Source: Kiritimatiellia bacterium
Lineage (GTDB): Bacteria; Verrucomicrobiota; Kiritimatiellia; JAAZAB01
Direction: 5' to 3'
NCBI GenBank assembly: GCA_040767085.1
Contig: JAXGPF010000009.1
Location: forward strand, 96,001 to 160,000
Length of the DNA stretch: 64,000 nt
The notes under the pieces are model-generated. The model did not search any database. It was given only the letters and a program-made list of their open reading frames with translations, and was not told where the DNA came from. The translations under genes were made by a program, and so were the position numbers. Below, piece by piece: positions 12,863-56,104 of this stretch. The first letter of the stretch is position 1. Each line of letters begins with the position of its first letter.

Positions 12863-12888
12863 AAAGGCATGTAATGGGAGGATCCATC

Positions 12889-39522: not shown

Positions 39523-39725
39523 GTAGATTCCGGAGCCTGACCACAGCAATTGGATGACAATTAAGGTTTTATAAAGACTTTGCCACCCTAAAAAAAGCTT
39601 ATACGCAATTATTGGCCTGAAAAATCGCTTTTAACTTATTGAATATTGTTCGCGGGCAGATCGAAACCGTCAATTCCGCCCGCCGGGGGATGTTAGGCCA
39701 AACAGACAGGTACGGATGCTTTTCA

Positions 39726-40763
39726 ATGAAAGCAAAATCAGTGATAAATTACCGGATGCCCGGAAATCTGTCGGTTTTTCAGGCAAAAATGTATAAGCAC
39801 TTGATTGACTGGAAACGCAGCCATATCACGGATAAACCGGGGTATTATGCGGGACGCGAATACGACACCGTTTTGCCGGATGAATTCAAGGGACAATTGC
39901 CGCATCTGTACAAGCCTGTCCGGCAGCGATTCCTTGACCACCAGCAGTCGTTTCACTTCAAAACCCACAAATTTTCCGACCACATGGCAAGTTCCCAGGT
40001 GGCCTGCGCGAATCTCTTCCTCCCAATTTTGGCACAGCCGGCTGTTGCCCCAGCAATCTTACAGGCGGTGAAACCTGATCTTGCGACGATCGCCACGGAT
40101 CAACTGGATTCAGGGTTCCGCATCGAGTTCTGGGATGAAGACCGGAATGGCAATCCCGGCCAGAAGGGGCTGCTTGGCGATCATAACCGCACCGCCGGCA
40201 CGGACGCCGATTTCGCCATCGCTTACCGGAACCATGACACTCAATTGTGCCTCTGGTTGATTGAGCACAAACTGACTGAGCAGGAATTCACAACCTGCGG
40301 CGGCGCAAAGAGCAAAGGTCGGCAGGCCGGCAAGCATTCATGTGATTCAATCGCTGAAATACTCAAAAACCCAAACTTCTGCTATTATCACAGCGCCTGC
40401 CGATATGAATACTGGAAGATTACCAACAGGGCCCCTGCCGAATTTCCCCGCAGTAACCTCTTAAAAACTGGTGAATGCCCTTTCAAGGGTGGACTCAATC
40501 AGCTTTGGCGTAATCAGCTCTTGGCAATTGCGATTGAAAACTCACCTGACTGGCCATACAAAAAAGTCTTTTTCTCCGTGGTCTATCATCCTAAGAATAC
40601 CGCATTGGCGGCATCCATGGATGCGTTTATGGCCCTCACGGGTAATTCCGGTCGGTTCACCAGCTTCACATCCGACGGCCTTGTCGAGAAGGCCGAGTCA
40701 TGCAATTCAACCGCACTCAGAGATTGGGCGGCTTGGTACAATGATTTGTATCTTGTCGGATAA
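39726..40763 (+). CDS. PGN_0703-like putative PD-(D/E)xK restriction endonuclease
   Basis: HMASSQVACANLF, TDAD, IEHKLTE.EF..C and QLWRNQLLA motifs. Start uncertain. Confidence 0.72.
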   Translation: MKAKSVINYRMPGNLSVFQAKMYKHLIDWKRSHITDKPGYYAGREYDTVLPDEFKGQLPHLYKPVRQRFLDHQQSFHFKTHKFSDHMASSQVACANLFLPILAQPAVAPAILQAVKPDLATIATDQLDSGFRIEFWDEDRNGNPGQKGLLGDHNRTAGTDADFAIAYRNHDTQLCLWLIEHKLTEQEFTTCGGAKSKGRQAGKHSCDSIAEILKNPNFCYYHSACRYEYWKITNRAPAEFPRSNLLKTGECPFKGGLNQLWRNQLLAIAIENSPDWPYKKVFFSVVYHPKNTALAASMDAFMALTGNSGRFTSFTSDGLVEKAESCNSTALRDWAAWYNDLYLVG

Positions 40764-41813: not shown

Positions 41814-42164
41814 CTACCAATGCCCGTCGCGGACCTCCCGAACCACCCGCAAAACAGCATGATCTGGGGCGTCCTTTAATTCCCGGATCATATCCGCAAA
41901 CAGGCGGGGGCGCTTCATGATGATCTGGCGCAGGTCGGACGAGACTTTGCCCGCCATGGCAAGCAGGATGTCGTGGTCTTCCTGAAGCGCCTCGGCCAGG
42001 CGCCGGATAGTGGCTTCGGATGGTGGCGGAGTCGCATCTCTTTCTATTTTACTGAGATACGACGGCTCCAAGCCAATCCTACATGCCACCTTACGGACGG
42101 TATATTCCGACTTGATTTGCAATAATTTTTCTCTTTTTGCACGAATATATTTGCCAAAACTCAT
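41814..42164 (-). CDS. XRE-family HTH transcriptional regulator
   Basis: FGKYIRAKRE...VRKVACRIGLEPSYLSKIER...PPSE. Confidence 0.9.
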   Translation of the reverse strand: MSFGKYIRAKREKLLQIKSEYTVRKVACRIGLEPSYLSKIERDATPPPSEATIRRLAEALQEDHDILLAMAGKVSSDLRQIIMKRPRLFADMIRELKDAPDHAVLRVVREVRDGHW

Positions 42165-42168
42165 AGTG

Positions 42169-42203
42169 CTGTGTAGTATGTTCTACACAGAACTTTACGT
42201 CAA
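42169..42203 (-). promoter_or_regulatory. XRE promoter with overlapping palindromic operator
   Basis: Minus strand TTGACG (42203-42198), 17 bp spacer, CATACT (42180-42175). Inverted repeat CTGTGTAG-N6-CTACACAG at 42169-42190. Confidence 0.7.
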
Positions 42204-42237
42204 GAATATTTTGATGAATTTTTCATCTGGAGTACAA

Positions 42238-43386
42238 ATGACTGAACTTCAATTGAACCTTGATGGCGCGTTTACGCATACTGCCGCAGAACTTCAGCAG
42301 ATGATACGTAAATACATCCTGGACATACTCGAATCACAAAGCCAGCCAAGCGCGGGTGAGCTCCTAGCCAAATTAGAGAATCGTTTTGACTGGCGGGTAC
42401 GGCAGATGTTGTTTCCGGTGGTGAAGGAACTTTGCGAAGATAAAACCGTGTCTAGATATCAACGCGACTACCTTAAAACAAATCTGCATCAAGAGGATAT
42501 TGAACAAGCATTACGCGGAGCTGTCAAACCGTCACAGGACTTCAAGAGCACGATTGACAAATTGATTACGAAAAGCCGGCTCTATCGGTCGTCTTCCGCC
42601 TTCCAGGAAGCGGTTGCGTTTATGGCTAAGTTCCGTGCCTATGCCCCATTTAACAATCTACTCGTCAAAGTGCAGAATCCCGCATGTGGATTCTACGCCA
42701 CCGAGAAAGATTGGAATAATAAATTTAGACGGTGGGTTAAAGAGGATGCCCGGCCAATGCTAATTTTGGCGCCAATGCATCCGGTTATGCTGGTCTATGA
42801 TGTCGATTCTACGGATGGTCAGCCACTGCCCAAGCATTTTGAGGATTTCGGCATTACTCAAGCGGACAAAGATTGGAACTACAATATCCTTGAACAAACG
42901 CTCATGAATTCAAAAAGGGATTTGATTGATGTCCATTTCAAACCTTTGTCAAAAACCATGTCAGGTTTTACCACTACTCGCGTTCAGAACCAAGGATGCA
43001 AGATGCGGATTGTTGTGAATAATAAGGAAGACCTACCCAGCCGCTACTCAATTTTATGCCATGAACTTGCCCACATTTACCTTGGACATTTAGGCGGTGA
43101 TAGAGATCGCTGGTGGCCTTCTCGGATTAATTTATCACATCCTACTGTGGAGATTGAAGCCGAAGCTGCGGCATATACTGTGGCAATTCGCACTGGTCTC
43201 AGGCCAGCGTCTGATTCGTATTTATCTTCATACTTGACAGATAAAGGAGTGCCGGATTCCGTCAGCATGGAGCTAATCGCTAAGGTTTCGGGTCGAATTG
43301 AAGAGATGGGCAAGCGGAAACTGCCGCCGCGCAAACGATTAAAACAACCAACCCAACCTGCTGATAACGAGAATCTCCTTTTTTAA
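42238..43386 (+). CDS. ArdC-like ssDNA-binding / ImmA-IrrE-type zincin metallopeptidase protein
   Basis: YAPFNNLLV..QNP...W...R.VK..A ArdC-N-like segment; HELAH and EIEAEAAAY zincin motifs. Confidence 0.75.
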   Translation: MTELQLNLDGAFTHTAAELQQMIRKYILDILESQSQPSAGELLAKLENRFDWRVRQMLFPVVKELCEDKTVSRYQRDYLKTNLHQEDIEQALRGAVKPSQDFKSTIDKLITKSRLYRSSSAFQEAVAFMAKFRAYAPFNNLLVKVQNPACGFYATEKDWNNKFRRWVKEDARPMLILAPMHPVMLVYDVDSTDGQPLPKHFEDFGITQADKDWNYNILEQTLMNSKRDLIDVHFKPLSKTMSGFTTTRVQNQGCKMRIVVNNKEDLPSRYSILCHELAHIYLGHLGGDRDRWWPSRINLSHPTVEIEAEAAAYTVAIRTGLRPASDSYLSSYLTDKGVPDSVSMELIAKVSGRIEEMGKRKLPPRKRLKQPTQPADNENLLF

Positions 43387-43736
43387 GTACATACTAAATA
43401 TTTAAGAAAGTATCCATGAGCGAAGAAATTATTTTGCATATTGATCACGATGTGCTGCTAAAGAACCTTATTCCTTGGACTAAAGTTGAACGCCGTCGGA
43501 AACACGACAATGCAGTCTTGTCGTTTGACGGTACTTTACTGAACATAGACTGAGCAGGATCGGAGTAATTGATGTTTTTCCGGGTTGTTTGAGTCACGCT
43601 AAGTGATGGACGTGGGCAAGCGTCCATCAGATAAAGTGCTTCTTTTTGCTCCCCTTGATTTTTGAGCATGCGGTAGCCTGCTGCGTCAGCAGCGGGGGCG
43701 CTGCCTCCTTGCAGCGTGCCGTGGGCGATTTCGTTT

Positions 43737-44135
43737 TTATGGCAGCGACGCTTTTAAGACTCGGTCGAGGTCGGCTTGGATTGGTTGGAGCAGTTCTATA
43801 TCCATGAATCCGTCTTGCACCTGTTTTTGCGCCTTGACCAGGGCTTCCCGGAAGAATGCCGCGGCGAGCGCCGGGTGACCTTTTTTTTCGTAGACCATTC
43901 CCAGCCCGTTAAATCCGTCGGGCACATCGGGTTGCGCGAGCATAAGTTTGTTGAAAATTTCCTCGGCGTCGTTAAGCTTGCCGGCGTCAATCAGATCGAG
44001 TCCCTGATTCCACCATTCGATGTCGTCTTCTTCCTCGAGTGGCCGGATTTGCGGGTATTGTTTTCTGATATTTGCGATATATTCCGCGATATTTATGGGA
44101 GCACGCATATGCATAAGGTACTCAACAGCGGTCAT
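43737..44135 (-). CDS. Tetratricopeptide-repeat protein (transposon passenger)
   Basis: WNQGLDLIDAGKLNDAEEIFNKL...PDGFNGLGMVYEKKG TPR pattern. Start uncertain (44135, 44114 or 44108). Confidence 0.75.
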   Translation of the reverse strand: MTAVEYLMHMRAPINIAEYIANIRKQYPQIRPLEEEDDIEWWNQGLDLIDAGKLNDAEEIFNKLMLAQPDVPDGFNGLGMVYEKKGHPALAAAFFREALVKAQKQVQDGFMDIELLQPIQADLDRVLKASLP

Positions 44136-44663
44136 TTTATCAAGTATTTAGAGCGATTTGATGGGAAGATTGCGCAGGCCGCCAAGGCGGAGATGTGCCG
44201 GTATTGCGGCGGCAAGCTGCATTGCGGCGATTATGCGCGCAAGCCGCGCGGTGTTGTCGGGTGGGATAAACGCCACAGTTTTAACTGTGCGCGGTGTCGG
44301 CGGCGCAAGACGCCGCCCAGCGTGCGTTTTCTTGGGCGCCGGGTTTATGCGGGCGTGGTGGTGGCGCTGGTGAGCGCGCTGATGCATGGTCTGAATGCTG
44401 GGCGCGCGCAGGTATTGGTTGAAAAACTGGGCATTGACCGGCGAACATTAAAGCGTTGGCTTGCATGGTGGCGCGCGGTGTTTGTGACGAGCGGGTTTTG
44501 GAAGGGCGCTCGGGCGAGTTTTATGCCACAGGTTGAGGCTACCCGGATGCCGTTGAGTTTATTGGAGGCGTTTGGCGCGGAGCGGCGCCGCGGGATGTTC
44601 AAGCTGTTACTTTTTATTGCGCCGATTACCACTGGTTCGTGTGAAATGGCGGTGGTTATGTGA
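44109..44663 (+). CDS. Transposon-associated Zn-ribbon/HTH protein (DUF6431-like)
   Basis: CRYCGGKLH...CARCRRR.TPPSVRFLGR followed by HTH LGIDRRTLKRW. Confidence 0.8.
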   Translation: MHKVLNSGHFIKYLERFDGKIAQAAKAEMCRYCGGKLHCGDYARKPRGVVGWDKRHSFNCARCRRRKTPPSVRFLGRRVYAGVVVALVSALMHGLNAGRAQVLVEKLGIDRRTLKRWLAWWRAVFVTSGFWKGARASFMPQVEATRMPLSLLEAFGAERRRGMFKLLLFIAPITTGSCEMAVVM

Positions 44664-44799
44664 TGGTTGTTTTTCTCCCGCAGAGCATGCCGCTGGAGCT
44701 TTGCGCGAGGGCGTTATACCTTGGGCGGCATTGCAACGGAATGGTCGGCGGAGCGGAATGGATTTCGCTTGGCGGCGGGCCAGACGGGAGGGGTGCGCA

Positions 44800-46296
44800 A
44801 TGCCAAAACAGGATGCGGATTATAGCGCGGGTGGCGGTGGTTCCGGGGGATGCGCGCGGTGGGCGCATTTTCGTTTCAGCGTAATTGGCCCATTATTGGC
44901 GGCGCCGCCGGGGCGGGGCGATTTGCAGGCGGAGATTGCGCTTCTGGCCGGCAAGCAATGGCGGCATCCGGTGACGGGGCAATGGGTGCGGTTTGGGTCT
45001 TCCACGATTGAGCGGTGGTATTACCGGGCTTTACATGGGGCCAAAGACCCGGTCGGCGTGTTGACGCGCAAGGTGCGCAACGATCATGGCGCCCATCGCA
45101 GTTTGAGCTTTGAGTTGCGCAATGCAATAAGCGTCCAGCACCAACAACACCCGGAGTGGAGTTGCCAACTGCATTACGACAACCTGGCGGTGCGCGTGGC
45201 GGAGGATTCGCGACTGGGAGCGTTACCGTCTTATGTGTCGGTGCGCCGTTATATGCGTGCCGCGGGGATGTTCAAGCGCCGCCGTTTGGGCGGGCGCCGG
45301 GATACCGCCGGCGCCCGGGCCGCCGAAGCGCGGTTTGCGGCTTTAGAGGTGCGCTCCTACGAAAGCGAGTACGTCAATGCGCTATGGCATTTGGACTTTC
45401 ATCAGGGATCAATCCCGGTCTTGACCAAGCCCGGCGAGTGGTTGCGGCCGCAATTACTTGGAGTGTTGGACGATCATTCCCGCATGTGCTGCCACTTGCA
45501 GTGGTACCTGGCGGAAACCGCCGAGAACCTGACGCATGGGTTAAGCCAAGCCATGCAAAAATGCGGTCTGCCAAGGGCGCTGATGACGGACAACGGCGGC
45601 GCCATGACGGCCGACGAAACCACGCAAGGACTCGCGCGTTTAGGTGTTTTACACGAGAAGACGCTGCCCTATAGCGCCTACCAGAACGGCAAACAGGAAT
45701 CCTTCTGGGGGCAAATAGAAGGGCGGTTGCTGCCCATGCTCGGCGGCTGCCCTGATTTGACGCTGGCACAGCTCAACCAGGCGACACAGGCCTGGGTCGA
45801 AATGGAATATAACCGCAAGGTGCATTCCGCGACCGCCCGATCGCCGGTTGATCGTTTTGTCAATGTCAAAGACGTGGGCAGAACTTGCCCATCCGCGGAA
45901 GTCTTGCGCCAGGCATTCACCGCCGGATGTTCGCGAACGCAACGCTTTAGTGATGGCACCATTAGCATTGACGGCGTACGCTTCGAGGTGCCTTCCCGCT
46001 ACCGCCATATCAAACGCATCGGCGTGCGATACGCCGCATGGGACTTGTCTTATGTTCATCTGGCCGACGCGCGTAGCGATCAAATCTTGACGCGGCTATT
46101 TCCGCAAGACAAACACAAAAACGCCGACGGCCACCGCCGCCAAAAGGAAACCATAGGCGACCATCCCGATCCAACATCGCCGCCGCCGCGGTCAACCGGC
46201 ATGGCGCCACTGTTGCGCAAATTCATCGCGGATTATGCCGCCACCGGGCTGCCGCCAGCTTATCTGCCAAAGGATGAACTCAAAATACAGGAGTAA
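44800..46296 (+). CDS. DDE integrase/transposase (rve core, Mu-like C-terminal domain)
   Basis: WHLDFH, LDDHSR, MTDNGG, GKQESFW, YNRKVHS, DGTISIDGVRFEVP; GGAGG RBS. Confidence 0.92.
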   Translation: MPKQDADYSAGGGGSGGCARWAHFRFSVIGPLLAAPPGRGDLQAEIALLAGKQWRHPVTGQWVRFGSSTIERWYYRALHGAKDPVGVLTRKVRNDHGAHRSLSFELRNAISVQHQQHPEWSCQLHYDNLAVRVAEDSRLGALPSYVSVRRYMRAAGMFKRRRLGGRRDTAGARAAEARFAALEVRSYESEYVNALWHLDFHQGSIPVLTKPGEWLRPQLLGVLDDHSRMCCHLQWYLAETAENLTHGLSQAMQKCGLPRALMTDNGGAMTADETTQGLARLGVLHEKTLPYSAYQNGKQESFWGQIEGRLLPMLGGCPDLTLAQLNQATQAWVEMEYNRKVHSATARSPVDRFVNVKDVGRTCPSAEVLRQAFTAGCSRTQRFSDGTISIDGVRFEVPSRYRHIKRIGVRYAAWDLSYVHLADARSDQILTRLFPQDKHKNADGHRRQKETIGDHPDPTSPPPRSTGMAPLLRKFIADYAATGLPPAYLPKDELKIQE

Positions 46297-46305
46297 TCAA
46301 ACATC

Positions 46306-47136
46306 ATGAGTAAAAAACTACTTGCGCTATACAGCCTGAAGTACAACCCGTTCTGCCAGGAAGTGCCGACCGCCGCACTATTCAGGACGCCGGCCGTCGA
46401 ACATTTTTGCTGGCGGATTGAAAATCAGGTCGGCGAAGGCGGCTTCGCGTTGGTTACCGGCTCGCCCGGATCCGGCAAAAGCGTGGCGCTGCGTATTCTG
46501 GCCGACCGGCTGCGCGGCATCCCGGATATCACCGTCGGCATCATCACCCGACCACAAGCATCCGTGGCCGACTTCTACCGCGAAATGGGCGATCTGTTCG
46601 CAACTACGCTGACGCCAAGCAACCGTTGGGGCGGCGCCAAGGCGTTGCGTCAAAAATGGCTGACCCATATTGACGCCTCGCTCTACCGCCCCGTCCTCCT
46701 CATCGATGAAGCCCAACTCATGACGCCGGGAACACTGGGTGAACTGCGCATGCTGGCAAGCGCCGAACTCGACTCGCGTAGCATCCTCACCGTGGTGCTC
46801 GCCGGGGATGAAAGACTGGTTAACAAACTGCGCAGCGACGACCTGTTGCCAATGGCCAGCCGTATCCGCTGCCGGCTGCCCTGTGACCCCGCCACCCCTC
46901 AACAACTACGCGAATGCCTCAACCATCAGCTAAAACAGGCCGGCAACACCAGATTGCTTTCAGACCCCGTAATCGCCGCGCTTTGCGAACATGCCGCCGG
47001 AAATTACCGGTCTTTAATGAACATGGCCAACGACCTCTTGGCCGCCGCATTACAACGTGAACTCGACCAAATTGATGAAAAACTCTTCTTCGATGTGTTC
47101 AATATCCGTGCCATATCAACGCAAAAATCCCAATAA
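46306..47136 (+). CDS. ExeA/TnsC-like AAA+ ATPase
   Basis: GSPGSGKS Walker A, LLIDEAQ Walker B, SRI arginine finger, GNYR. Confidence 0.9.
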   Translation: MSKKLLALYSLKYNPFCQEVPTAALFRTPAVEHFCWRIENQVGEGGFALVTGSPGSGKSVALRILADRLRGIPDITVGIITRPQASVADFYREMGDLFATTLTPSNRWGGAKALRQKWLTHIDASLYRPVLLIDEAQLMTPGTLGELRMLASAELDSRSILTVVLAGDERLVNKLRSDDLLPMASRIRCRLPCDPATPQQLRECLNHQLKQAGNTRLLSDPVIAALCEHAAGNYRSLMNMANDLLAAALQRELDQIDEKLFFDVFNIRAISTQKSQ

Positions 47137-47787
47137 AGCAACAACACTTAAACACGACAAGTAAAGACGGGGCGCCTACACGTCACGCCCAATTAAAAAG
47201 CGAATAGGCTCTCATTAAACAAGCCAGGCCAAACACATATCCATCAATTATCACGACAAATCATCCATCATTTTTTGTGATCGCTCTCAGACATGAGGGG
47301 CGTGTGCATCAAAGCGCCGGCCCAAGGCACATGGAACGGACAAGTTCGTATCTCTGCCTCGTTTATGGCAATGATAGCAAAGATGCCCTTCCCGGCTGGG
47401 CCCATAATCTTTCGCATTCAAGACAACCGCTTATGTGTAAATGTTTTCTCATGCCCATGCGTATGGCAATCCTCGGATCAATCAGTCATTAGGTTGCCAA
47501 TTAATGCCGATACTGCGCTGTTCCTTGCACTAAAACTCCGCTATTCAATGGACCGAATTCGTGCATCCGGTTTACTGGAAGCGGTGAACGCCGCAGAAGC
47601 ACAATGTAAACGAGATGTATATTCTGCCACCCTGGCGTTGTCAAAGTATGGGGTGCGTTCAGAGGATTTACGCGTCCTTATTGATCAGGCATTGATTGAG
47701 AATGGTTTGACCGGAAAAGCATAAAGACGACCATCACAGTAGCTGTCCATAATCACCGCTCAAAAGCCATTCTGTCGGAAGGGTTTC

Positions 47788-47988
47788 ATGAATTTTCAAC
47801 GCTACAAATGCCTAAAATGCGGACAGATGGCCGGCGTGCGAATAATTTATGGTTATCCCGGCCCGGAATTGTGTCAAGCAGAACAACGTGGCGAAATTAA
47901 ACTTGGGGGCTGTTGTGTGACCAGTGGTCAACCATATTTCCATTGTAATTCCTGTGGATATGAGTGGAATTTCAAGCAATCACGCTGA
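47788..47988 (+). CDS. Small Cys-rich (Zn-finger) hypothetical protein
   Basis: CLKCG...IIYGYP...LGGCC...FHCNSCGYEW. Confidence 0.7.
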   Translation: MNFQRYKCLKCGQMAGVRIIYGYPGPELCQAEQRGEIKLGGCCVTSGQPYFHCNSCGYEWNFKQSR

Positions 47989-48081
47989 GCCGATCAAACC
48001 ACGCAATACAATTTAAACCAAGATTCAAAGCGCTACGACAAGATATTGTGTTTTCTATATTTATTATTGTGAGAATAACAT

Positions 48082-48900
48082 ATGGGCAAGAAGCCGACAT
48101 CATTACGCGATAATACAGACACAATATCTCCACGTCCTAAAGTGCCGTCATTTTCTTTTGCCACCCATGCTGATTTATGGCAAAGCTGGACAAAGTTTAA
48201 AATATCGTTGCAGGGAATGGTTCAATCAGGGAAGAATAACAACGAGCTAACAAGTTCACTGCTTATGCTGGCGGATGAAGTCGTCTGGGAATTAGATCAA
48301 CTTCGCCAAAATATGCCAAACGCCCTACTCCCTTACACAGGCGACCGGAATTCTTGGCCGATGAATATCCCCGTGAACAAAGTCCAACGAGCAATTGATA
48401 TTAATAGCGTTTTTAAATCACTACCGATCGGCATTTATTTCAACGGCCCTCAGAGAGAACACCGCACAAACAATCCGTTAGGCATAAAAAATAAATTTGT
48501 TTATGATTTAGTTGCTTTGGGGTTTATTAAGACCGGTAATATCACTAAAATAGCACCATGGTCGCCATTTAATTATAATCTCACAACAAACAAACAGCAT
48601 AAAGCCCCGTTTGCAGCACAGTTTGATTTACCTCTTTCATCTGATACGCTGCCGAATTTCCTCAAAGCAGCTATGCAATTTCTTCGTTATGATATTTGCA
48701 AGAACAATATTCAGTTAGCAGAGAAATTGCCTATTTTCTCAGGATTGGCAAAACAACGTGACCGACATCTATCTGAGAAGGACAAGGACGGCAAACACAT
48801 ATTTAATGTTGTAGTGTCTGATGATCCAAAGCGCTACTGGTCCCATGCAAGTAACGTACTTGCTCGCGTAATAAAACGTCATTCTGGCATATTTCGGTAA
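48082..48900 (+). CDS. Hypothetical protein (AT-rich)
   Basis: 272 aa ORF with no recognised motif. Confidence 0.6.
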   Translation: MGKKPTSLRDNTDTISPRPKVPSFSFATHADLWQSWTKFKISLQGMVQSGKNNNELTSSLLMLADEVVWELDQLRQNMPNALLPYTGDRNSWPMNIPVNKVQRAIDINSVFKSLPIGIYFNGPQREHRTNNPLGIKNKFVYDLVALGFIKTGNITKIAPWSPFNYNLTTNKQHKAPFAAQFDLPLSSDTLPNFLKAAMQFLRYDICKNNIQLAEKLPIFSGLAKQRDRHLSEKDKDGKHIFNVVVSDDPKRYWSHASNVLARVIKRHSGIFR

Positions 48901-48918: not shown

Positions 48919-49591
48919 ATATGCAGTCCGGTCCAGCACCTTCTACACAAATGGTCCGGCCATGTTATACTGCTTCGGCAATAATTATGCCGCTTGATTT
49001 TGAGCGGCTTTTCTGGCGGCCTGCCAGCGGGCGGGCGTCAGTTCCGCCACCTCGGTGATTTGCATAGCCGGCAGGCGCGTAAGTACGTCCAGACAGTATT
49101 CGCGTTGGTTGATCCCGCGGCGACGGCAGCTTTCCAGCGGTGTGCATATGATCGCGCTGCGTTGCCCCGCCTCCCGGGAACCAAAGGATAACCAGTTGTT
49201 TTTGCCCAGCGCCGTTGGCCGGATGGCGTTTTCCACCAGGTTGTTGTCTATTTCTGTCGCAGTCGCAGAGAAAAGTCTTTCCCCCGCCAGTTGTTATCCT
49301 GCGGGCCGCCATCTGGAACTCCTTGAATTTAATACCAGGTTTGGTCGGCCCGCCGCCGGATGCCTTTGGCGCCGCGCGGAACCCCGTGCTGAATGTGGTG
49401 GGGTGTATGCCGCGGCGAGCGAAATGCTGCATATGGGTAACTCCCGACGCCCGCCATCCTGAACCAGTTCCTGCCGTTGCGCCGATGTCCGCAGCAGCCG
49501 GCCCTGCCTGCCTGCTCGTTGTTTGCTTTCATACCGCCTGTCTAACACATCCCGGCGGCCGTGCATAGGTGGTGCTTGGTTGGCCGCTTAT
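48919..49591 (-). mobile_element. Internally deleted, decayed IS66 derivative (both ends, tnpA 5' part fused to tnpC 3' part)
   Basis: Reverse-complement homology to both IS66 ends; ENAIRPTALGK tnpC tail and tnpA remnant within ~670 bp. Confidence 0.85.
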
Positions 49592-49685
49592 TTTCCAACT
49601 ATCACCAAAATATTATAGTCCGGGGACAAATTCTCGCTAATTCGCCCCCCCGACTGGGTATTGTCAATTGATTGCGTTGATTTAT

Positions 49686-51219
49686 GTTTCCTCACCAGAA
49701 TTTGTGGGTGATTACCGGTTCGGGCAATTGCCCAAGGGTATGATATAGCGCCATTTCCGCGCCATGAAAAGTTCTGAAGCCATAAGATCGTTTGGTAACC
49801 ACTCGAGCTTTATTGTTCAAGCCCTCGGTTGCGCCAGTAAAAACCTCGTTTCTGGCTCTGATCCAGTTCAAAAGCAGCTCCTCGTGTTTAGCAATGGTTT
49901 TAGCCGCCTTAATGATTGGCGCAATGCGGCTACGACAGGCGCGCTTGACCCATGCCTGGAGATAATTACGCGCCCAGGTTGGGCTGTGATAGCTCCAAAA
50001 ATGCTGAAAGCTTTCCTTGAACAAATAGGCGCGGCCGGTTTGCAGTCTTGTGCCCAATATCCGATCAAGCATTTCGCGAGCTTTGCCGCGCACGCGGGTT
50101 TTGCGGCGCAGCAAGGTCCAGCGCATTTTCTTGAGTTTTTGCTTGGCCGCCGGACGCGCTGTCATCGCCGCCATATCCCGGCGCCGGACCTCGTCCACGG
50201 CGGCATTCAAGGTTTGCACGACATGGAAGCGGTCAATCATGTGGCAACCGTGGCTGAGGCTCGCAGCAATGACTTTCAGATAAGGTCGCCACATATCGCT
50301 ACATATATGTCGAATGCCGGCCAGCACGGGTTTTCCCAAAGATTGCAACCCTTTACGCAGCGCGGCCGCCCGGCGGGTTTGGCCGACCCAGAGCAATCGG
50401 CGGCATTGCGCATCAATCTGATAGATCAAGGTCAGATAGTTCTTGCTCTTTTTACCGTTGCCTACGTGGAGTTCATCAACACCAATCGCCGTTATATTGG
50501 CCAATTCCCGGTGCGCCAAGCCCCATTCCACCATCCACTCGACCGACCGATAAACCGCCTGCCAACTGACTTTGAAAATCAGCGCCGTCTCTTTCCAGGA
50601 CAACCTCCGCGCCCAGTTCCCCAAAAAAAGCATCAGCGCCTTGCTGTAGGGTCGTTTGCCATCGCTCCAAGGCAGCGCTTCCACCACCACGCCATGTTCG
50701 GGGCAATTTACCCGGCGCGGACTATAATGCAAAAAAGCCGGCACATTCAAAATGGGCACAAACGCCCATATCCGTTCAGGCAGAGTGTCGTATGTCGCCA
50801 GCGGTCGCCCGCAACGCGAGCAGCATGCCGCGCGTTGGCGATGCGGACGAATGCTTATATCCACTTTCCATTGGCCGCGACGATCCAAAACCATACAAGT
50901 TTCCTGATAAATAAAACGTTTCAAAGGTTGCAAACGATTCAAAATTGTTTTAAGTTTCACCTTGGGCTGGTCCTCCTTTTTTTGTGTTCACCCATTGCAT
51001 ACGCAATGGATTACGGAAAGGCCAGCCTATTTTTTTGCCGCCGCTTTATCTCCGTTCCGCCATCGCGCCAATCAGGAGTTATTAATCAGGCTGCTGCGGG
51101 GCCGCCAAACGCCCAAAGCGGCAGGCTGTTAATAACTCCACCATCTTTTGGCGCCATTGCTTGGAGAACTTCTTAAACTTTAAAACCTGTTTTTTACCCA
51201 CAAATTCTGGTTAGGAGCC
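49686..51219 (-). mobile_element. ISL3-family IS, copy 1 (1534 bp)
   Basis: IRs GGCTCCTAACCAGAATTTGTGGGT / GTTTCCTCACCAGAATTTGTGGGT; 8 bp duplication TGATTTAT. Confidence 0.95.
49692..50960 (-). CDS. ISL3-family transposase
   Basis: Zn finger CSRCG...CPEHG, IGVDE, CSDMW.PY, IDRFHV, TEGLNNK...KRSYGFR. Confidence 0.95.
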   Translation of the reverse strand: MKLKTILNRLQPLKRFIYQETCMVLDRRGQWKVDISIRPHRQRAACCSRCGRPLATYDTLPERIWAFVPILNVPAFLHYSPRRVNCPEHGVVVEALPWSDGKRPYSKALMLFLGNWARRLSWKETALIFKVSWQAVYRSVEWMVEWGLAHRELANITAIGVDELHVGNGKKSKNYLTLIYQIDAQCRRLLWVGQTRRAAALRKGLQSLGKPVLAGIRHICSDMWRPYLKVIAASLSHGCHMIDRFHVVQTLNAAVDEVRRRDMAAMTARPAAKQKLKKMRWTLLRRKTRVRGKAREMLDRILGTRLQTGRAYLFKESFQHFWSYHSPTWARNYLQAWVKRACRSRIAPIIKAAKTIAKHEELLLNWIRARNEVFTGATEGLNNKARVVTKRSYGFRTFHGAEMALYHTLGQLPEPVITHKFW

Positions 51220-51278
51220 TGATTTATTATACCCCCGGCTTTTGATAATACTGTGTAATAAATTGAAAGGAGTGTGTC

Positions 51279-51584
51279 ATGATTAAATCTGAGTTAATTA
51301 CATGGATTGCTGGACTCACAGATGATGCGCCCGATCTACTGAACATCGATGCAATTCGTCGCGGCATAGATCACCAGCATGCCGATGATGGCCGTGCGAT
51401 GACAATCACAGATGTTGCCATGCGTTCTGGTTACGCTCGCCCCTCGATCTATCGTGCCATTAAGGCCGGCACGCTCAAGGCATTCCGCCCATATCCTGGC
51501 GGTAGGCTAAGAATTACACAAGGGGCATTCTCACGCTGGATGACTGACCGACAAGGAGATGATGTGGTCCATGAAAACAATTAA
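51279..51584 (+). CDS. Excisionase/AlpA-like HTH protein
   Basis: MTITDVAMRSGYARPSIYRAIKAGTLKA...GRLRI...W; AAGGAG RBS. Confidence 0.8.
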   Translation: MIKSELITWIAGLTDDAPDLLNIDAIRRGIDHQHADDGRAMTITDVAMRSGYARPSIYRAIKAGTLKAFRPYPGGRLRITQGAFSRWMTDRQGDDVVHENN

Positions 51585-51617
51585 CAAACGAATTGCAAGC
51601 AATTCCTTAAATAAGAG

Positions 51618-51905
51618 ATGGTTATGAACAAATCAAACACTAATTTAGTAAAGCTTTCGAATGATGGTCAGGCGATTGTAATTTGTTTTGGAAATCAATA
51701 TTTTTGCGATATCGATCTTTCAAAAATCACAAGTGCACACGATATTATCGATTGGTATTTTCATTTGTCAGAAAAAATAGATGTAACCCCGGAGATCCTG
51801 GCTGAATTTATGTCAGCTATACAAATAGTGTGTTCTCTGTATTTCAATACTGATCCACGGAATTTATTCGTCGGCGGGGATCGGATCGAATGGCCAGGGG
51901 AATGA
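51618..51905 (+). CDS. Hypothetical phage-like protein
   Basis: 95 aa ORF co-oriented after the xis-like gene. Confidence 0.6.
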   Translation: MVMNKSNTNLVKLSNDGQAIVICFGNQYFCDIDLSKITSAHDIIDWYFHLSEKIDVTPEILAEFMSAIQIVCSLYFNTDPRNLFVGGDRIEWPGE

Positions 51906-51953
51906 GGCGCGGCGGCGTTTTTTTGCGCCGAATTAGGCTACCATTAAAAATAT

Positions 51954-53487
51954 GTTTCCTCACCAGAATTTGTGGGTGATTACCGGTTCGGGCAATTGCC
52001 CAAGGGTATGATATAGCGCCATTTCCGCGCCATGAAAAGTTCTGAAGCCATAAGATCGTTTGGTAACCACTCGAGCTTTATTGTTCAAGCCCTCGGTTGC
52101 GCCAGTAAAAACCTCGTTTCTGGCTCTGATCCAGTTCAAAAGCAGCTCCTCGTGTTTAGCAATGGTTTTAGCCGCCTTAATGATTGGCGCAATGCGGCTA
52201 CGACAGGCGCGCTTGACCCATGCCTGGAGATAATTACGCGCCCAGGTTGGGCTGTGATAGCTCCAAAAATGCTGAAAGCTTTCCTTGAACAAATAGGCGC
52301 GGCCGGTTTGCAGTCTTGTGCCCAATATCCGATCAAGCATTTCGCGAGCTTTGCCGCGCACGCGGGTTTTGCGGCGCAGCAAGGTCCAGCGCATTTTCTT
52401 GAGTTTTTGCTTGGCCGCCGGACGCGCTGTCATCGCCGCCATATCCCGGCGCCGGACCTCGTCCACGGCGGCATTCAAGGTTTGCACGACATGGAAGCGG
52501 TCAATCATGTGGCAACCGTGGCTGAGGCTCGCAGCAATGACTTTCAGATAAGGTCGCCACATATCGCTACATATATGTCGAATGCCGGCCAGCACGGGTT
52601 TTCCCAAAGATTGCAACCCTTTACGCAGCGCGGCCGCCCGGCGGGTTTGGCCGACCCAGAGCAATCGGCGGCATTGCGCATCAATCTGATAGATCAAGGT
52701 CAGATAGTTCTTGCTCTTTTTACCGTTGCCTACGTGGAGTTCATCAACACCAATCGCCGTTATATTGGCCAATTCCCGGTGCGCCAAGCCCCATTCCACC
52801 ATCCACTCGACCGACCGATAAACCGCCTGCCAACTGACTTTGAAAATCAGCGCCGTCTCTTTCCAGGACAACCTCCGCGCCCAGTTCCCCAAAAAAAGCA
52901 TCAGCGCCTTGCTGTAGGGTCGTTTGCCATCGCTCCAAGGCAGCGCTTCCACCACCACGCCATGTTCGGGGCAATTTACCCGGCGCGGACTATAATGCAA
53001 AAAAGCCGGCACATTCAAAATGGGCACAAACGCCCATATCCGTTCAGGCAGAGTGTCGTATGTCGCCAGCGGTCGCCCGCAACGCGAGCAGCATGCCGCG
53101 CGTTGGCGATGCGGACGAATGCTTATATCCACTTTCCATTGGCCGCGACGATCCAAAACCATACAAGTTTCCTGATAAATAAAACGTTTCAAAGGTTGCA
53201 AACGATTCAAAATTGTTTTAAGTTTCACCTTGGGCTGGTCCTCCTTTTTTTGTGTTCACCCATTGCATACGCAATGGATTACGGAAAGGCCAGCCTATTT
53301 TTTTGCCGCCGCTTTATCTCCGTTCCGCCATCGCGCCAATCAGGAGTTATTAATCAGGCTGCTGCGGGGCCGCCAAACGCCCAAAGCGGCAGGCTGTTAA
53401 TAACTCCACCATCTTTTGGCGCCATTGCTTGGAGAACTTCTTAAACTTTAAAACCTGTTTTTTACCCACAAATTCTGGTTAGGAGCC
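51954..53487 (-). mobile_element. ISL3-family IS, copy 2
   Basis: Same IRs as copy 1; 8 bp duplication AAAAATAT. Confidence 0.95.
51960..53228 (-). CDS. ISL3-family transposase
   Basis: Protein identical to 49692-50960. Confidence 0.95.
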   Translation of the reverse strand: MKLKTILNRLQPLKRFIYQETCMVLDRRGQWKVDISIRPHRQRAACCSRCGRPLATYDTLPERIWAFVPILNVPAFLHYSPRRVNCPEHGVVVEALPWSDGKRPYSKALMLFLGNWARRLSWKETALIFKVSWQAVYRSVEWMVEWGLAHRELANITAIGVDELHVGNGKKSKNYLTLIYQIDAQCRRLLWVGQTRRAAALRKGLQSLGKPVLAGIRHICSDMWRPYLKVIAASLSHGCHMIDRFHVVQTLNAAVDEVRRRDMAAMTARPAAKQKLKKMRWTLLRRKTRVRGKAREMLDRILGTRLQTGRAYLFKESFQHFWSYHSPTWARNYLQAWVKRACRSRIAPIIKAAKTIAKHEELLLNWIRARNEVFTGATEGLNNKARVVTKRSYGFRTFHGAEMALYHTLGQLPEPVITHKFW

Positions 53488-53688
53488 AAAAATATCATGG
53501 CTCACCAGTGCATGTAAATACAATCTGTTACCTGATTACGGCGTCCGGATGAACCTCGAAACGTGCCGGAAGTAGATATACATAAAAAGGATCACACACA
53601 ACGACTTACGTAGTTTGTAACCATTGGCTGACCAATGGGTTTGGATCCAGGGAAATTCAGGCAAAAAGGCGGGCGGATTGGTGTTGAT

Positions 53689-54459
53689 ATGGGATCAACC
53701 ACAACAAAATTTATTCCCGGCGGCTACTACATCAAGGCGCGGTGTAGTGCCGACAGCGCGGTGGCGCATGCCCCACCCCATGTACGTGAAATTTGGGATT
53801 ACCTGCTGAGCCGGGCGCTCTTTAAGGACGGGAAGTGGCTTAAACGCGGAGAAGTCAGCACAAGTTACACAGAAATCAGGAGCGCCCTTTCGTGGTTTGT
53901 TGGGTGGCGCAAAATGCAGTATTCGAAATCGCAATGCGAAACTGCCATGAAATGGTTAAAGGCTGCCTCCATGATAACTACGCGTAGAACCACACGGGGT
54001 TTTATCATAACCATTTGTAATTACGGGAAATATCAAGACCCGAAGAATTATGAAAGCCACAGCGAAATCACGGTGAATGCCACAGGAACGCCACAAACCT
54101 CCGATACCACAGAGAAGAATGATGATAAACGGGATAAAGATAAAACCCTCTCGGGGGATGGGGGTGATCCAGTTTATCAAATACTTCATGTTTGTGCAAA
54201 GCTACGTGCTATGACCTACGATCAATATTGGAATGTACGCAAGGGGTTTTCGCCGCCGCCCACATTAGACTGGCTAGCTTTGTCACAACGCACAGTTGCG
54301 GAGGCAATATTAATGTCCGATCCGATCCGGAACCCAGCATTGTTTTGGCGGAGGCAGATCCAAAAAGCCCTAGGTGTGCAGCGTTCCTCCCAAATACAGA
54401 CATCGGCGCTGGATCATGCTGATGGCCAAGCGAGCATACGGGCAGCATTTAAGATTTGA
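53689..54459 (+). CDS. Phage replication-initiator-like (wHTH) protein
   Basis: LKRGEVSTSY...W...WL....MIT....RGFIITICNYGKYQ, typical of phage replisome-organiser N-termini. Confidence 0.72.
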   Translation: MGSTTTKFIPGGYYIKARCSADSAVAHAPPHVREIWDYLLSRALFKDGKWLKRGEVSTSYTEIRSALSWFVGWRKMQYSKSQCETAMKWLKAASMITTRRTTRGFIITICNYGKYQDPKNYESHSEITVNATGTPQTSDTTEKNDDKRDKDKTLSGDGGDPVYQILHVCAKLRAMTYDQYWNVRKGFSPPPTLDWLALSQRTVAEAILMSDPIRNPALFWRRQIQKALGVQRSSQIQTSALDHADGQASIRAAFKI

Positions 54460-54570
54460 AAGGCGTGCAATTTTATGGATGGACGATGCGTAAAAAATAT
54501 GCTCAACCAGCGCGCACAAAACGTGTGCGAGTTCCTGCTGCCTGGCGGCAAGGTTGAAGGCCACAATTAT

Positions 54571-56104
54571 GTTTCCTCACCAGAATTTGTGGGTGATTAC
54601 CGGTTCGGGCAATTGCCCAAGGGTATGATATAGCGCCATTTCCGCGCCATGAAAAGTTCTGAAGCCATAAGATCGTTTGGTAACCACTCGAGCTTTATTG
54701 TTCAAGCCCTCGGTTGCGCCAGTAAAAACCTCGTTTCTGGCTCTGATCCAGTTCAAAAGCAGCTCCTCGTGTTTAGCAATGGTTTTAGCCGCCTTAATGA
54801 TTGGCGCAATGCGGCTACGACAGGCGCGCTTGACCCATGCCTGGAGATAATTACGCGCCCAGGTTGGGCTGTGATAGCTCCAAAAATGCTGAAAGCTTTC
54901 CTTGAACAAATAGGCGCGGCCGGTTTGCAGTCTTGTGCCCAATATCCGATCAAGCATTTCGCGAGCTTTGCCGCGCACGCGGGTTTTGCGGCGCAGCAAG
55001 GTCCAGCGCATTTTCTTGAGTTTTTGCTTGGCCGCCGGACGCGCTGTCATCGCCGCCATATCCCGGCGCCGGACCTCGTCCACGGCGGCATTCAAGGTTT
55101 GCACGACATGGAAGCGGTCAATCATGTGGCAACCGTGGCTGAGGCTCGCAGCAATGACTTTCAGATAAGGTCGCCACATATCGCTACATATATGTCGAAT
55201 GCCGGCCAGCACGGGTTTTCCCAAAGATTGCAACCCTTTACGCAGCGCGGCCGCCCGGCGGGTTTGGCCGACCCAGAGCAATCGGCGGCATTGCGCATCA
55301 ATCTGATAGATCAAGGTCAGATAGTTCTTGCTCTTTTTACCGTTGCCTACGTGGAGTTCATCAACACCAATCGCCGTTATATTGGCCAATTCCCGGTGCG
55401 CCAAGCCCCATTCCACCATCCACTCGACCGACCGATAAACCGCCTGCCAACTGACTTTGAAAATCAGCGCCGTCTCTTTCCAGGACAACCTCCGCGCCCA
55501 GTTCCCCAAAAAAAGCATCAGCGCCTTGCTGTAGGGTCGTTTGCCATCGCTCCAAGGCAGCGCTTCCACCACCACGCCATGTTCGGGGCAATTTACCCGG
55601 CGCGGACTATAATGCAAAAAAGCCGGCACATTCAAAATGGGCACAAACGCCCATATCCGTTCAGGCAGAGTGTCGTATGTCGCCAGCGGTCGCCCGCAAC
55701 GCGAGCAGCATGCCGCGCGTTGGCGATGCGGACGAATGCTTATATCCACTTTCCATTGGCCGCGACGATCCAAAACCATACAAGTTTCCTGATAAATAAA
55801 ACGTTTCAAAGGTTGCAAACGATTCAAAATTGTTTTAAGTTTCACCTTGGGCTGGTCCTCCTTTTTTTGTGTTCACCCATTGCATACGCAATGGATTACG
55901 GAAAGGCCAGCCTATTTTTTTGCCGCCGCTTTATCTCCGTTCCGCCATCGCGCCAATCAGGAGTTATTAATCAGGCTGCTGCGGGGCCGCCAAACGCCCA
56001 AAGCGGCAGGCTGTTAATAACTCCACCATCTTTTGGCGCCATTGCTTGGAGAACTTCTTAAACTTTAAAACCTGTTTTTTACCCACAAATTCTGGTTAGG
56101 AGCC
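54571..56104 (-). mobile_element. ISL3-family IS, copy 3
   Basis: Same IRs as copy 1; 8 bp duplication ACAATTAT. Confidence 0.95.
54577..55845 (-). CDS. ISL3-family transposase
   Basis: Protein identical to 49692-50960. Confidence 0.95.
   Translation of the reverse strand: MKLKTILNRLQPLKRFIYQETCMVLDRRGQWKVDISIRPHRQRAACCSRCGRPLATYDTLPERIWAFVPILNVPAFLHYSPRRVNCPEHGVVVEALPWSDGKRPYSKALMLFLGNWARRLSWKETALIFKVSWQAVYRSVEWMVEWGLAHRELANITAIGVDELHVGNGKKSKNYLTLIYQIDAQCRRLLWVGQTRRAAALRKGLQSLGKPVLAGIRHICSDMWRPYLKVIAASLSHGCHMIDRFHVVQTLNAAVDEVRRRDMAAMTARPAAKQKLKKMRWTLLRRKTRVRGKAREMLDRILGTRLQTGRAYLFKESFQHFWSYHSPTWARNYLQAWVKRACRSRIAPIIKAAKTIAKHEELLLNWIRARNEVFTGATEGLNNKARVVTKRSYGFRTFHGAEMALYHTLGQLPEPVITHKFW

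Follow-up and report, generated by a model that had tools for sequence, protein, structure and literature searches.

The stretch of DNA analyzed here (the window) comprises 64,000 nucleotides of contig JAXGPF010000009.1 from a Kiritimatiellia bacterium, and carries a single discrete insertion of 3739 bp at positions 43551–47289. This insertion is one intact copy of a transposon of the Tn6049 family, which duplicated the triplet GAC when it inserted. Three intact genes on its plus strand encode a zinc-ribbon/helix-turn-helix (HTH) protein, hereafter ZNR, a DDE transposase and an AAA+ ATPase (Table 1). An earlier note on this DNA had described a three-gene element; these three genes are borne out, but a fourth, encoding a TPR-repeat protein on the minus strand, had been overlooked.

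The element starts at 43551, where the flanking AACATAGAC passes into its 5' sequence TGAGCAGGATCGGAGTAATTGATG, and ends at 47289, where its 3' sequence CATCATTTTTTGTGATCGCTCTCA gives way to GACATGAGG. Its tips are TGAG...CTCA, a GAC triplet directly abuts both ends, and the [G + C] content steps from 0.42–0.47 in the flanks to 0.55–0.63 within the element. Subterminal TGATGG/CCATCA motifs were found at 43604, 43624, 47241, and 47265, and TGATG at 43570. Each end contains two direct sites of approximately 24 bp that finish in (T)GATGG, and the left end alone has one further, inverted site. This inverted site forms a palindrome with the second left site (arms 43595–43612 and 43621–43638, 78% complementary), which is kept in the related locus L003, and the right terminal site is near-identical to the right ends of the related loci L010 and L012. 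The ends, repeated subterminal motifs and GAC duplication that the earlier note had claimed are thus seen at both junctions.

The insertion splits a 188-aa gene. The open reading frame (ORF) of its 5' fragment spans 43416–43553 and stops at a TGA (43551–43553) provided by the first bases of the element; the ORF in the frame that matches this fragment picks up again at 47293. A protein search with the 143-aa right fragment gave a sole match, the uninterrupted 187-aa protein P0121. From the GAC codon onwards, the right fragment aligns to P0121 without gaps (63% identity, E 1e-67), and residues 6–45 of the left fragment align to P0121 residues 5–44 (53%, E 5e-15). As each of the two GAC codons falls on D44 of P0121, they stand for one codon, and the rejoined gene has neither gained nor lost a residue. 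An uninterrupted homologue of the gene, for which the earlier note proposed to look, therefore exists, and the in-frame rejoining it described agrees with the alignment. Together with the clean junctions and the [G + C] step, this homologue supports its view of a fully delimited, apparently intact transposon. From the junctions and the P0121 alignment the number of duplicated bases is three. A 4-bp duplication (AGAC) with a right end one base shorter could also be read from the same letters, and would break the TGAG/CTCA symmetry.

Table 1. Features of the transposon, of the gene it interrupts and of the upstream island (positions in the window).
Feature	Position	Strand	Remarks
Left copy of the target-site duplication (GAC)	43548–43550	.	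GAC codon maps to D44 of P0121
Right copy of the target-site duplication (GAC)	47290–47292	.	GAC codon maps to D44 of P0121
Left terminal site L1 (TGAGCAGGATCGGAGTAATTGATG), left inverted repeat	43551–43574	+	By eye, 15 of 24 positions agree with the right terminus
Second left site L2 (TGAG...AAGTGATGGACG)	43590–43612	+	GTGATGGACG in common with Tn6049
Inverted third left site L3 (CGTCCATCAGATAAAGTGC)	43621–43639	-	Palindrome with L2
TPR-repeat gene, 132 aa	43737–44135	-	Pfam TPR_2 2.8e-8; internal ATG start possible
ZNR, zinc-ribbon/HTH protein, 184 aa	44109–44663	+	First gene of the conserved module
Near-invariant non-coding motif CCCGCAGAGCATGC	44677–44690	+	After the ZNR stop, before the DDE start
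Putative sigma-70-like promoter for the DDE and ATPase genes	44694–44722	+	-35-like TGGAGC, 17 nt, -10-like TACCTT; from column conservation
DDE transposase, 498 aa	44800–46296	+	Pfam rve 2.4e-9
AAA+ ATPase, 276 aa	46306–47136	+	Pfam AAA_22 3.4e-19
Second right site R2	47240–47263	-	
Right terminal site R1 (reverse complement TGAGAGCGATCACAAAAAATGATGGA), right inverted repeat	47264–47289	-	
5' fragment of the split host gene, 45 codons	43416–43550	+	Residues 6–45 compared with P0121
3' fragment of the split host gene	47290–47724	+	Aligns to P0121 residues 44–186
Tyrosine integrase	12874–14517		
SNF2/PLD helicase (1134 aa), then 1111-aa ORF	16208–22947		
OLD-family AAA_15 + TOPRIM protein (ATPase-nuclease)	28409–30469		
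GmrSD_N protein (GmrSD-like)	32525–34072		
REase-ARP/PD-(D/E)XK nuclease	39639–40763		
XRE HTH regulator	41814–42164	-	
IrrE/M78-like protein (peptidase)	42010–43386		

In the family alignment the catalytic residues of the transposase (D199, D264, and E300) are invariant, as are the Walker A (G52–S59) and Walker B (D134 and E135) motifs of the ATPase, and Pfam rve and AAA_22 each match all 50 of the 50 members compared for the respective protein. The AlphaFold (AF2) model of the transposase (predicted local distance difference test, pLDDT, 83.7; predicted template modeling score, pTM, 0.70) consists of two N-terminal helical (HTH) domains, an RNase-H core, a beta-barrel (residues 375–435) and, after a disordered linker, a conserved C-terminal helix (residues 470–481). 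A Foldseek search of the PDB with this model ranked ShCAST TnsB first (3e-19), followed by Tn7 TnsB (2.8e-15), MuA (1.2e-14), and IstA (1.4e-13), with retroviral integrases below them. ShCAST TnsB is also the top PDB match of the sequence profile (E 8e-7), and PHROG 310, annotated as transposase, is matched at 3.8e-41. Among solved structures the ATPase profile finds MuB first (3.8e-6) and ShCAST TnsC second (6.6e-4), and the ATPase matches PHROG 296, a DNA transposition protein, at 5.3e-20; no IstB family is listed among its Pfam matches. The pairing of a DDE enzyme with an AAA+ protein akin to that of Mu, Tn7, Tn552, and IS21, as put forward in the earlier note, is supported. Against the Tn402 proteins of pHS87a, hhalign gave a probability of 57% (E 1e-4) for the ATPase with TniB and of 6% for the transposase with TniA; on this basis the pair is Mu/Tn7-like in kind and probably lies outside the Tn5053 family.

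In ZNR, four cysteines (C30, C33, C60, and C63) are invariant in 49 aligned sequences, together with the basic residues around them and T113 and W117 of an HTH-like helix. In its AF2 model (pLDDT 77), a helix at the N-terminus, a zinc ribbon of two hairpins and a helical domain can be made out, and the Pfam families HTH_23 and HTH_28 are matched weakly in 30 and 19 of the 49 members, respectively. A Zn-ribbon/HTH protein encoded upstream of the transposase, as originally described, is thus supported. No Pfam or NCBIfam family scores above its cut-off, the ZNR profile has no match among PDB sequences at E ≤ 10, and Foldseek returned none at E ≤ 0.001 from either the PDB or BFVD; the best fold rows are generic zinc ribbons (MqsA, NudC, and Rpb9-like, E 0.3–1), and there is no TniQ chain among the PDB rows listed. 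Pfam TniQ does not match ZNR, and hhalign of its profile against Tn402 TniQ gave a probability of 0.4% (E 0.15 over 14 columns). ESM Atlas neighbors of ZNR are unnamed clusters and, more distantly, DUF6431 (cosine 0.94–0.96, 32–74% of cluster members). The link to DUF6431 is unconfirmed, with no aligned member matching at E ≤ 1 among the 25 of 38 Pfam families listed, and a literature search on DUF6431, judged by titles and the starts of abstracts, gave nothing related.

Longer proteins that contain ZNR were also considered. A word-based search yielded three, of 473 aa, of 631 aa (with AMP-binding domains) and of 360 aa, and none of them is a fusion of ZNR to the transposase; eight longer proteins (249–394 aa) among 150 listed matches of the ZNR profile have no Pfam domain. 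Such longer proteins are probably over-extended ORFs or insertion artifacts rather than real fusions. A fusion of ZNR and transposase through an IS3-style frameshift was rejected as well, as the transposase frame is +1 relative to that of ZNR, not -1, and the N-termini of the transposases of relatives start near an RWA motif.

A named relative of the window element is Tn6049, found by a blastn search of plasmid records that hit Cupriavidus plasmids. At the pMOL30 locus (L001), NCBI labels its products transposase (181 aa), IS481 family transposase (479 aa) and AAA family ATPase (277 aa); BLASTP identities with the window proteins are 36% for ZNR (5e-27), 54% for the transposase (6e-167), and 57% for the ATPase (4e-112). 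Tn6049, from Cupriavidus metallidurans CH34 and from pHS87a of P. aeruginosa, agrees with the window element in its three genes and their order, all on one strand, in its imperfect TG.G inverted repeats with GATGG sites and the common GTGATGGACG, and in the internal CCGCAGA..ATG motif, a size of approximately 3.5 kb and short duplications. It differs from the window element in its tips (TGTG...CACA), in an overlap of the transposase and ATPase genes (in the window the ATPase starts 10 nt past the transposase stop), in a small extra ORF downstream of the ATPase gene in place of a TPR gene, and in duplications of 4–7 bp at eight sites, against 3 bp in the window. The family is therefore not unnamed, since Tn6049 has the same three-gene module and end architecture, and the window element is best described from its sequence as a divergent new member, a distant relative of Tn6049. 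No close copy was found in plasmid records, in which the best match has 66–67% identity over about a quarter of the element. From other public datasets we retrieved a 100%-identical transposase (P0001) on a contig of 3955 nt and a 99%-identical ORF containing ZNR (P0272) on one of 2674 nt; near-identical copies of the window element thus exist elsewhere.

The CH34 genome paper, in its part on the element, describes Tn6049 as 3.5 kb in size with 12 copies and calls the ATPase gspA (PMC2864759), and the section on pHS87a in PMC4739549 reports imperfect inverted repeats of 12 bp and a direct repeat of 4 bp. A passage in a 2018 paper states that Tn6049's transposition module "could not be categorized." Searches for Tn6049, for IS481 with an ATPase or with TniB, TnsC, IstB, or MuB, and for ExeA with a transposase found no mechanistic or family-level study in the literature within reach, to which subscription journals, including the original description of 2009, did not belong. 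To that extent the family is indeed under-described.

Relatives are widespread. We scanned species-representative genomes with the transposase alignment and retained 80 relative loci; at least 598 relatives were confirmed from 600 pattern matches listed for these genomes. Their record titles name Pseudomonadota, Verrucomicrobiota, Lentisphaerota, Planctomycetota, Thermodesulfobacteriota, Myxococcota, Acidobacteriota, Elusimicrobiota, Bacteroidota, Chloroflexota-type bins and others. Of the 72 loci that extend 750 nt or more upstream of the transposase match, 71 encode ZNR, and the one without it (L057) has a 5'-truncated transposase; the ATPase is encoded in all 78 loci with at least 300 nt downstream. 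The protein database yielded 8000 scored transposase clusters, and the ZNR profile 2721 representatives (at 50% identity) with E ≤ 0.001, 780 of them with E ≤ 1e-30. A maximum-likelihood tree of 51 transposases resolves two deep clades (support 99/99): one of 21 rows that is rich in Pseudomonadota and includes Tn6049, and one of 30 rows from mixed phyla, in which the window protein stands beside L002, L003, and L005. Phylum labels require 20 changes on this tree, against a minimum of 12, which fits horizontal spread, although many rows are metagenome bins.

Within-genome comparison of copies and inverted-repeat searches show that TGAG...CTCA tips with internal GATGG are the rule among relatives. 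In 32 of 44 loci a TGNG, 12–20 nt, GATGG pattern begins 125–200 nt upstream of ZNR, mostly at 145–147 nt (24 of the 32 read TGAG); on the right side it is found in 36 of 54 loci, and in control windows within transposase genes in 34 of 405. The GATC that the earlier note counted among the features of the tips is not kept: a Dam switch acting through GATC at tip positions 8–11 is unsupported family-wide, as relatives show GAGC, GGTC, and other variants.

The length of the target duplication varies. Of nine sites of identical Tn6049 copies, eight show duplications of 6, 6, 4, 5, 4, 4, 4, and 7 bp, and one, of a rearranged copy (L085), has none. A further 19 loci have both ends recognized and 10 nt or more of flank; seven of these show duplications of 7, 7, 6, 5, 4, 4, and 4 bp. 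With the window included, 16 duplicated sites are distributed over 3 bp (1 site), 4 bp (7), 5 bp (2), 6 bp (3), and 7 bp (3), and no common target sequence is evident among them by eye. The collection of homologous elements suggested in the earlier note thus bears out a recurring end layout but not a constant 3-bp duplication. The 3-bp duplication is real in the window, where it widens the range to 3–7 bp, and is one end of that range rather than a family signature. L085 shares its left flank with L087, the right flanks differ, and the two are on different plasmids; such complete-looking members without a duplication, among which are also L036 and L064, suggest recombination between copies or intramolecular (replicative) events.

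The TPR gene occurs in two of 81 related loci (in L003 at the same position with 69% identity, and in L054 with 36%) and, being so rare, is regarded as a passenger. Its presence accounts for the distance of 558 nt between the left end and ZNR in the window, against about 146 nt in typical relatives. In the left ends of those relatives, approximately 70–147 nt from the tip, two conserved inverted repeats (TCTCCCTCAGG...CCTGAGGGAGA-like and GTCTC...GAGAC) and a CTTGAACA block lie past the second transposase site and before ZNR begins; the TPR gene replaces this segment in the window.

A further conserved feature, overlooked in the earlier note, is a CCGCAGA..ATGC motif upstream of the transposase gene. 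Its core, CGCA.A, is present in 71–73 of 75 aligned spacers, and the motif is invariant in 18 of 18 diverse members. The exact 12-mer CCGCAGARSATG occurs in 43 of 89 loci, including every Tn6049 copy, once per locus, at this position and on the plus strand; L028 has one additional match elsewhere on the minus strand. Five to six bases past the motif begin a conserved T.G, a 17-nt spacer and TA...T (in 75 spacers, T63/G66 and T61, A72, T41), which have the look of a weak promoter. Two other explanations of the motif were discarded. For an RNA element in the spacer, the sole Rfam match lies elsewhere and below threshold (Acido-Lenti-1, 20 bits against 37), and RNAalifold on 18 sequences gave three invariant pairs at -2.2 kcal/mol with covariation absent; a small ORF starting from the ATG of the motif would not terminate at the conserved TA(G/A) in the window, where its frame stays open for 74 codons.

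The insertion lies within a low-GC patch (41950–48900), and the interrupted gene, of unknown function, lies inside an island of defense and mobile-element genes (those at 12874–43386 are given in Table 1, and the IS66, ISL3 and ISNCY elements described below also belong to it), with the XRE regulator and the IrrE-like peptidase directly upstream of it. Directly 3' of the split gene there is a 66-aa ORF (47788–47988) with two CxxC pairs and no Pfam match, and at the edge of the low-GC patch a C-terminal remnant of an IS66 element (48985–49236, minus strand; Pfam E 1e-5). Three 100%-identical ISL3-family copies follow within 7 kb (49680–56100; start-to-start distances 2268 and 2617 nt), with 422-aa transposases on the minus strand (49692–50960, 51960–53228, and 54577–55845; NCBIfam ISL3, 249 bits); the 470-aa plus-strand ORFs over these copies have no Pfam match and are probably antisense artifacts. 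An ISNCY-family transposase is encoded at 9742–10977, scoring 352 bits with the NCBIfam model transpos_ISNCY_2 (cut-off 250). Its identity to the core of the Tn6049-type transposase is only 25%, and its gene contains a chance exact copy of GTGATGGACG (10294–10303).

Taken as a whole, the observations are very probably explained by a Tn6049-family transposon with a Mu/TnsB-type mechanism, the steps of which we derive from homology and fold. The 498-aa transposase, with the TnsB/MuA order of HTH domains, RNase-H DD35E core, beta-barrel and C-terminal tail, would bind the two direct GATGG sites of approximately 24 bp at each end and pair the ends. It would then nick at the terminal ...CA-3' and join the 3' ends to the target with a short, flexible stagger of 3–7 bp family-wide. 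The 276-aa AAA+ protein, presumably co-transcribed, would be a target-DNA activator of the MuB/TnsC type and not a passenger "secretion" ATPase; it would capture target DNA in an ATP-dependent manner and be engaged through the conserved C-terminal helix of the transposase. As neither a TnsA-like second nuclease nor a resolvase is found among the genes of the window element, second-strand processing would be left to replication, repair or a copy-out route.

This scheme resembles that of Mu. In Mu, a small DNA-binding gene lies directly upstream of A–B, and in the window, too, a gene for a putative DNA-binding protein precedes the enzyme pair; the two elements have in common multiple subterminal sites per end and a terminal CA, the transposase matches the MuA fold and the Mu-type PHROG 310, and MuB is the closest solved relative of the ATPase. 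Mu duplicates a fixed 5 bp and carries phage structural and lysis genes between its ends, whereas duplications in the Tn6049 family measure 3–7 bp and the window element has four genes only, none of them from a phage. ZNR was unrelated to Mu Ner in any search run. Tn7-like elements, including CRISPR-associated transposons (CASTs), and Tn5053/Tn402 are likewise three-component systems, and the TnsB of the former is the best fold and profile match of the transposase. They duplicate a fixed 5 bp, and the window element differs from them in its gene order, in the absence of TniQ homology, TnsA and a resolvase, in tips that are not TGT...ACA, and in that no preference for an attachment site was seen. 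In IS21 (IstA/IstB) and Tn552 (p480/p271), too, a DDE enzyme is paired with an AAA+ regulator of its own, and each end holds several transposase sites, but neither is known to have a Zn-ribbon gene upstream. IstA is a significant fold match, whereas the NCBIfam IS21 model, at 36.6 bits, falls below its cut-off of 160; the IS3 cut-off was also failed.

What ZNR does in such an element is less clear. Because of the CCGCAGA..ATGC motif and the adjoining promoter-like columns, our preferred but unproven reading is that ZNR, or the transposase itself, controls the transposase–ATPase operon at this motif. By analogy with Ner of Mu and InsA of IS1, ZNR may be a sequence-specific DNA-binding accessory that acts there and determines how much transposase and ATPase is made, or when, to which we give somewhat less than an even chance.

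Several observations weigh against these readings. The window transposase misses Pfam Mu-transpos_C, which 12 of 50 members match weakly, and the window ATPase matches Pfam TniB only at E 0.095. In 12 of the 19 relatives with both ends recognized the duplication amounts to none or one base. Ten of these 12 are on contigs of 3.6–7.3 kb, on which a repeated element may have received chimeric flanks, but L036 and L064 are long assemblies, for which later rearrangement is the only explanation we can offer. The passages on the family in PMC2864759, PMC4739549, and PMC6210171 give only copy numbers, ends and direct repeats, and no experiments. As to the control of the operon, a consensus scan found no sigma-70-like site in 43400–47450, the promoter having been read from column conservation; the motif contains GATG, so that it could equally be a transposase site; and no observation ties ZNR to the motif. 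Lastly, the conservation of ZNR equals that of the enzymes, which could also mean that it is an essential subunit of the transpososome or one for targeting.

One form of the latter is the proposal of the earlier note that ZNR is a TniQ-like target selector, which would recognize a feature of the target and recruit the AAA+ protein, which in turn licenses the transposase. The combination of a DDE enzyme, an AAA+ protein and a small Zn-binding protein does parallel TniA/TniB/TniQ and TnsB/TnsC/TniQ, ZNR is nearly always present, and its conserved basic zinc ribbon suggests nucleic-acid binding. However, a relation to TniQ was not detectable by hhalign, Pfam, PDB profile or the Foldseek comparison that the earlier note had in mind, the gene order differs, with ZNR approximately 110–140 nt upstream of the transposase gene, and the 16 duplicated insertion sites show no evident common target. 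We consider a TniQ-like target selector unlikely, while in purely functional terms ZNR could, by analogy, still have a target-selecting role.

ZNR might instead be a subunit of the transpososome, a detached end-binding module resembling the N-terminal Zn-ribbon and HTH of ISL3-type transposases, that binds the ends with the DDE enzyme. Its weak HTH_23 and HTH_28 matches are to transposase-type HTH domains, NCBI labels the Tn6049 orthologue a transposase, and the ends conserve more than the GATGG sites, in particular the inverted repeats in the left end of approximately 147 nt. Yet the transposase has two N-terminal helical domains of its own that align with the DNA-binding part of TnsB, and the three longer proteins gave no ZNR–transposase fusion, which is weak evidence; we regard this role, too, as improbable.

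It is barely credible that the element is an ordinary IS481-family insertion sequence (IS) with passengers, including a gspA-like secretion-type ATPase: IS481 is the best NCBIfam IS model for the transposase (E 3e-32), the ATPase best matches an ExeA-like PEP-CTERM ATPase in NCBIfam, and gspA is the name used in the CH34 genome paper, but the IS481 score of 112.2 bits is half the cut-off of 224 and the model stops at residue 353 of 498, the ExeA-like score is 80 bits against a cut-off of 324, the ATPase gene is linked in every one of the 78 loci and tightly coupled to the transposase gene, and the ATPase profile finds MuB and TnsC first among solved structures, the ATPase also matching a Mu-type PHROG. 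IS481 elements are single-gene insertion sequences of about 1 kb, whereas the elements of the Tn6049 family measure 3.4–3.7 kb, and the window transposase has a C-terminal extension of approximately 145 aa (beta-barrel and tail) and is accompanied by two further obligatory genes. The likeness to IS481 lies in the transposase core and HTH, for which it is the nearest IS-family model, in the NCBI label of the Tn6049 enzyme, and in the variable duplication length, given as 2–15 bp in an ISfinder statement quoted in PMC10045372. The termini differ, being TGT...ACA for IS481 in the relevant passage of PMC11406308 and TGAG...CTCA in the window.

Beyond the preferred view of a Tn6049-family transposon with a Mu/TnsB-type mechanism, it is possible, if rather doubtful, that elements of the Tn6049 type are a lineage in their own right, spread across phyla, of DDE transposons assisted by an ATPase, to which the cores of Mu, Tn7, Tn552, and IS21 are sister. 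ZNR would then be the obligatory third subunit and a new family, with no Pfam family and no solved relative, in a novel job, either as a target selector or AAA+ licensing factor or as a switch at CCGCAGA..ATGC. The elastic stagger of 3–7 bp would reflect a geometry of transpososome and target unlike the one that gives Mu and Tn7 their fixed 5 bp.

DDE transposons that work with an ATPase (Mu, Tn7 and CASTs, IS21, and Tn552) are the main models of regulated target choice and the basis of programmable insertion tools. The Tn6049 family uses the same enzyme pair with a different third protein, and is compact (3.4 kb), abundant and present in many phyla. The window provides a clean case, with intact genes, both ends, a duplicated triplet and an empty-site homologue, which eases the design of mini-element assays. 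The variability of the duplication between 3 and 7 bp, seen even among identical copies, is a testable mechanistic oddity, and this elastic length and the ZNR protein are the points that deserve experiment.

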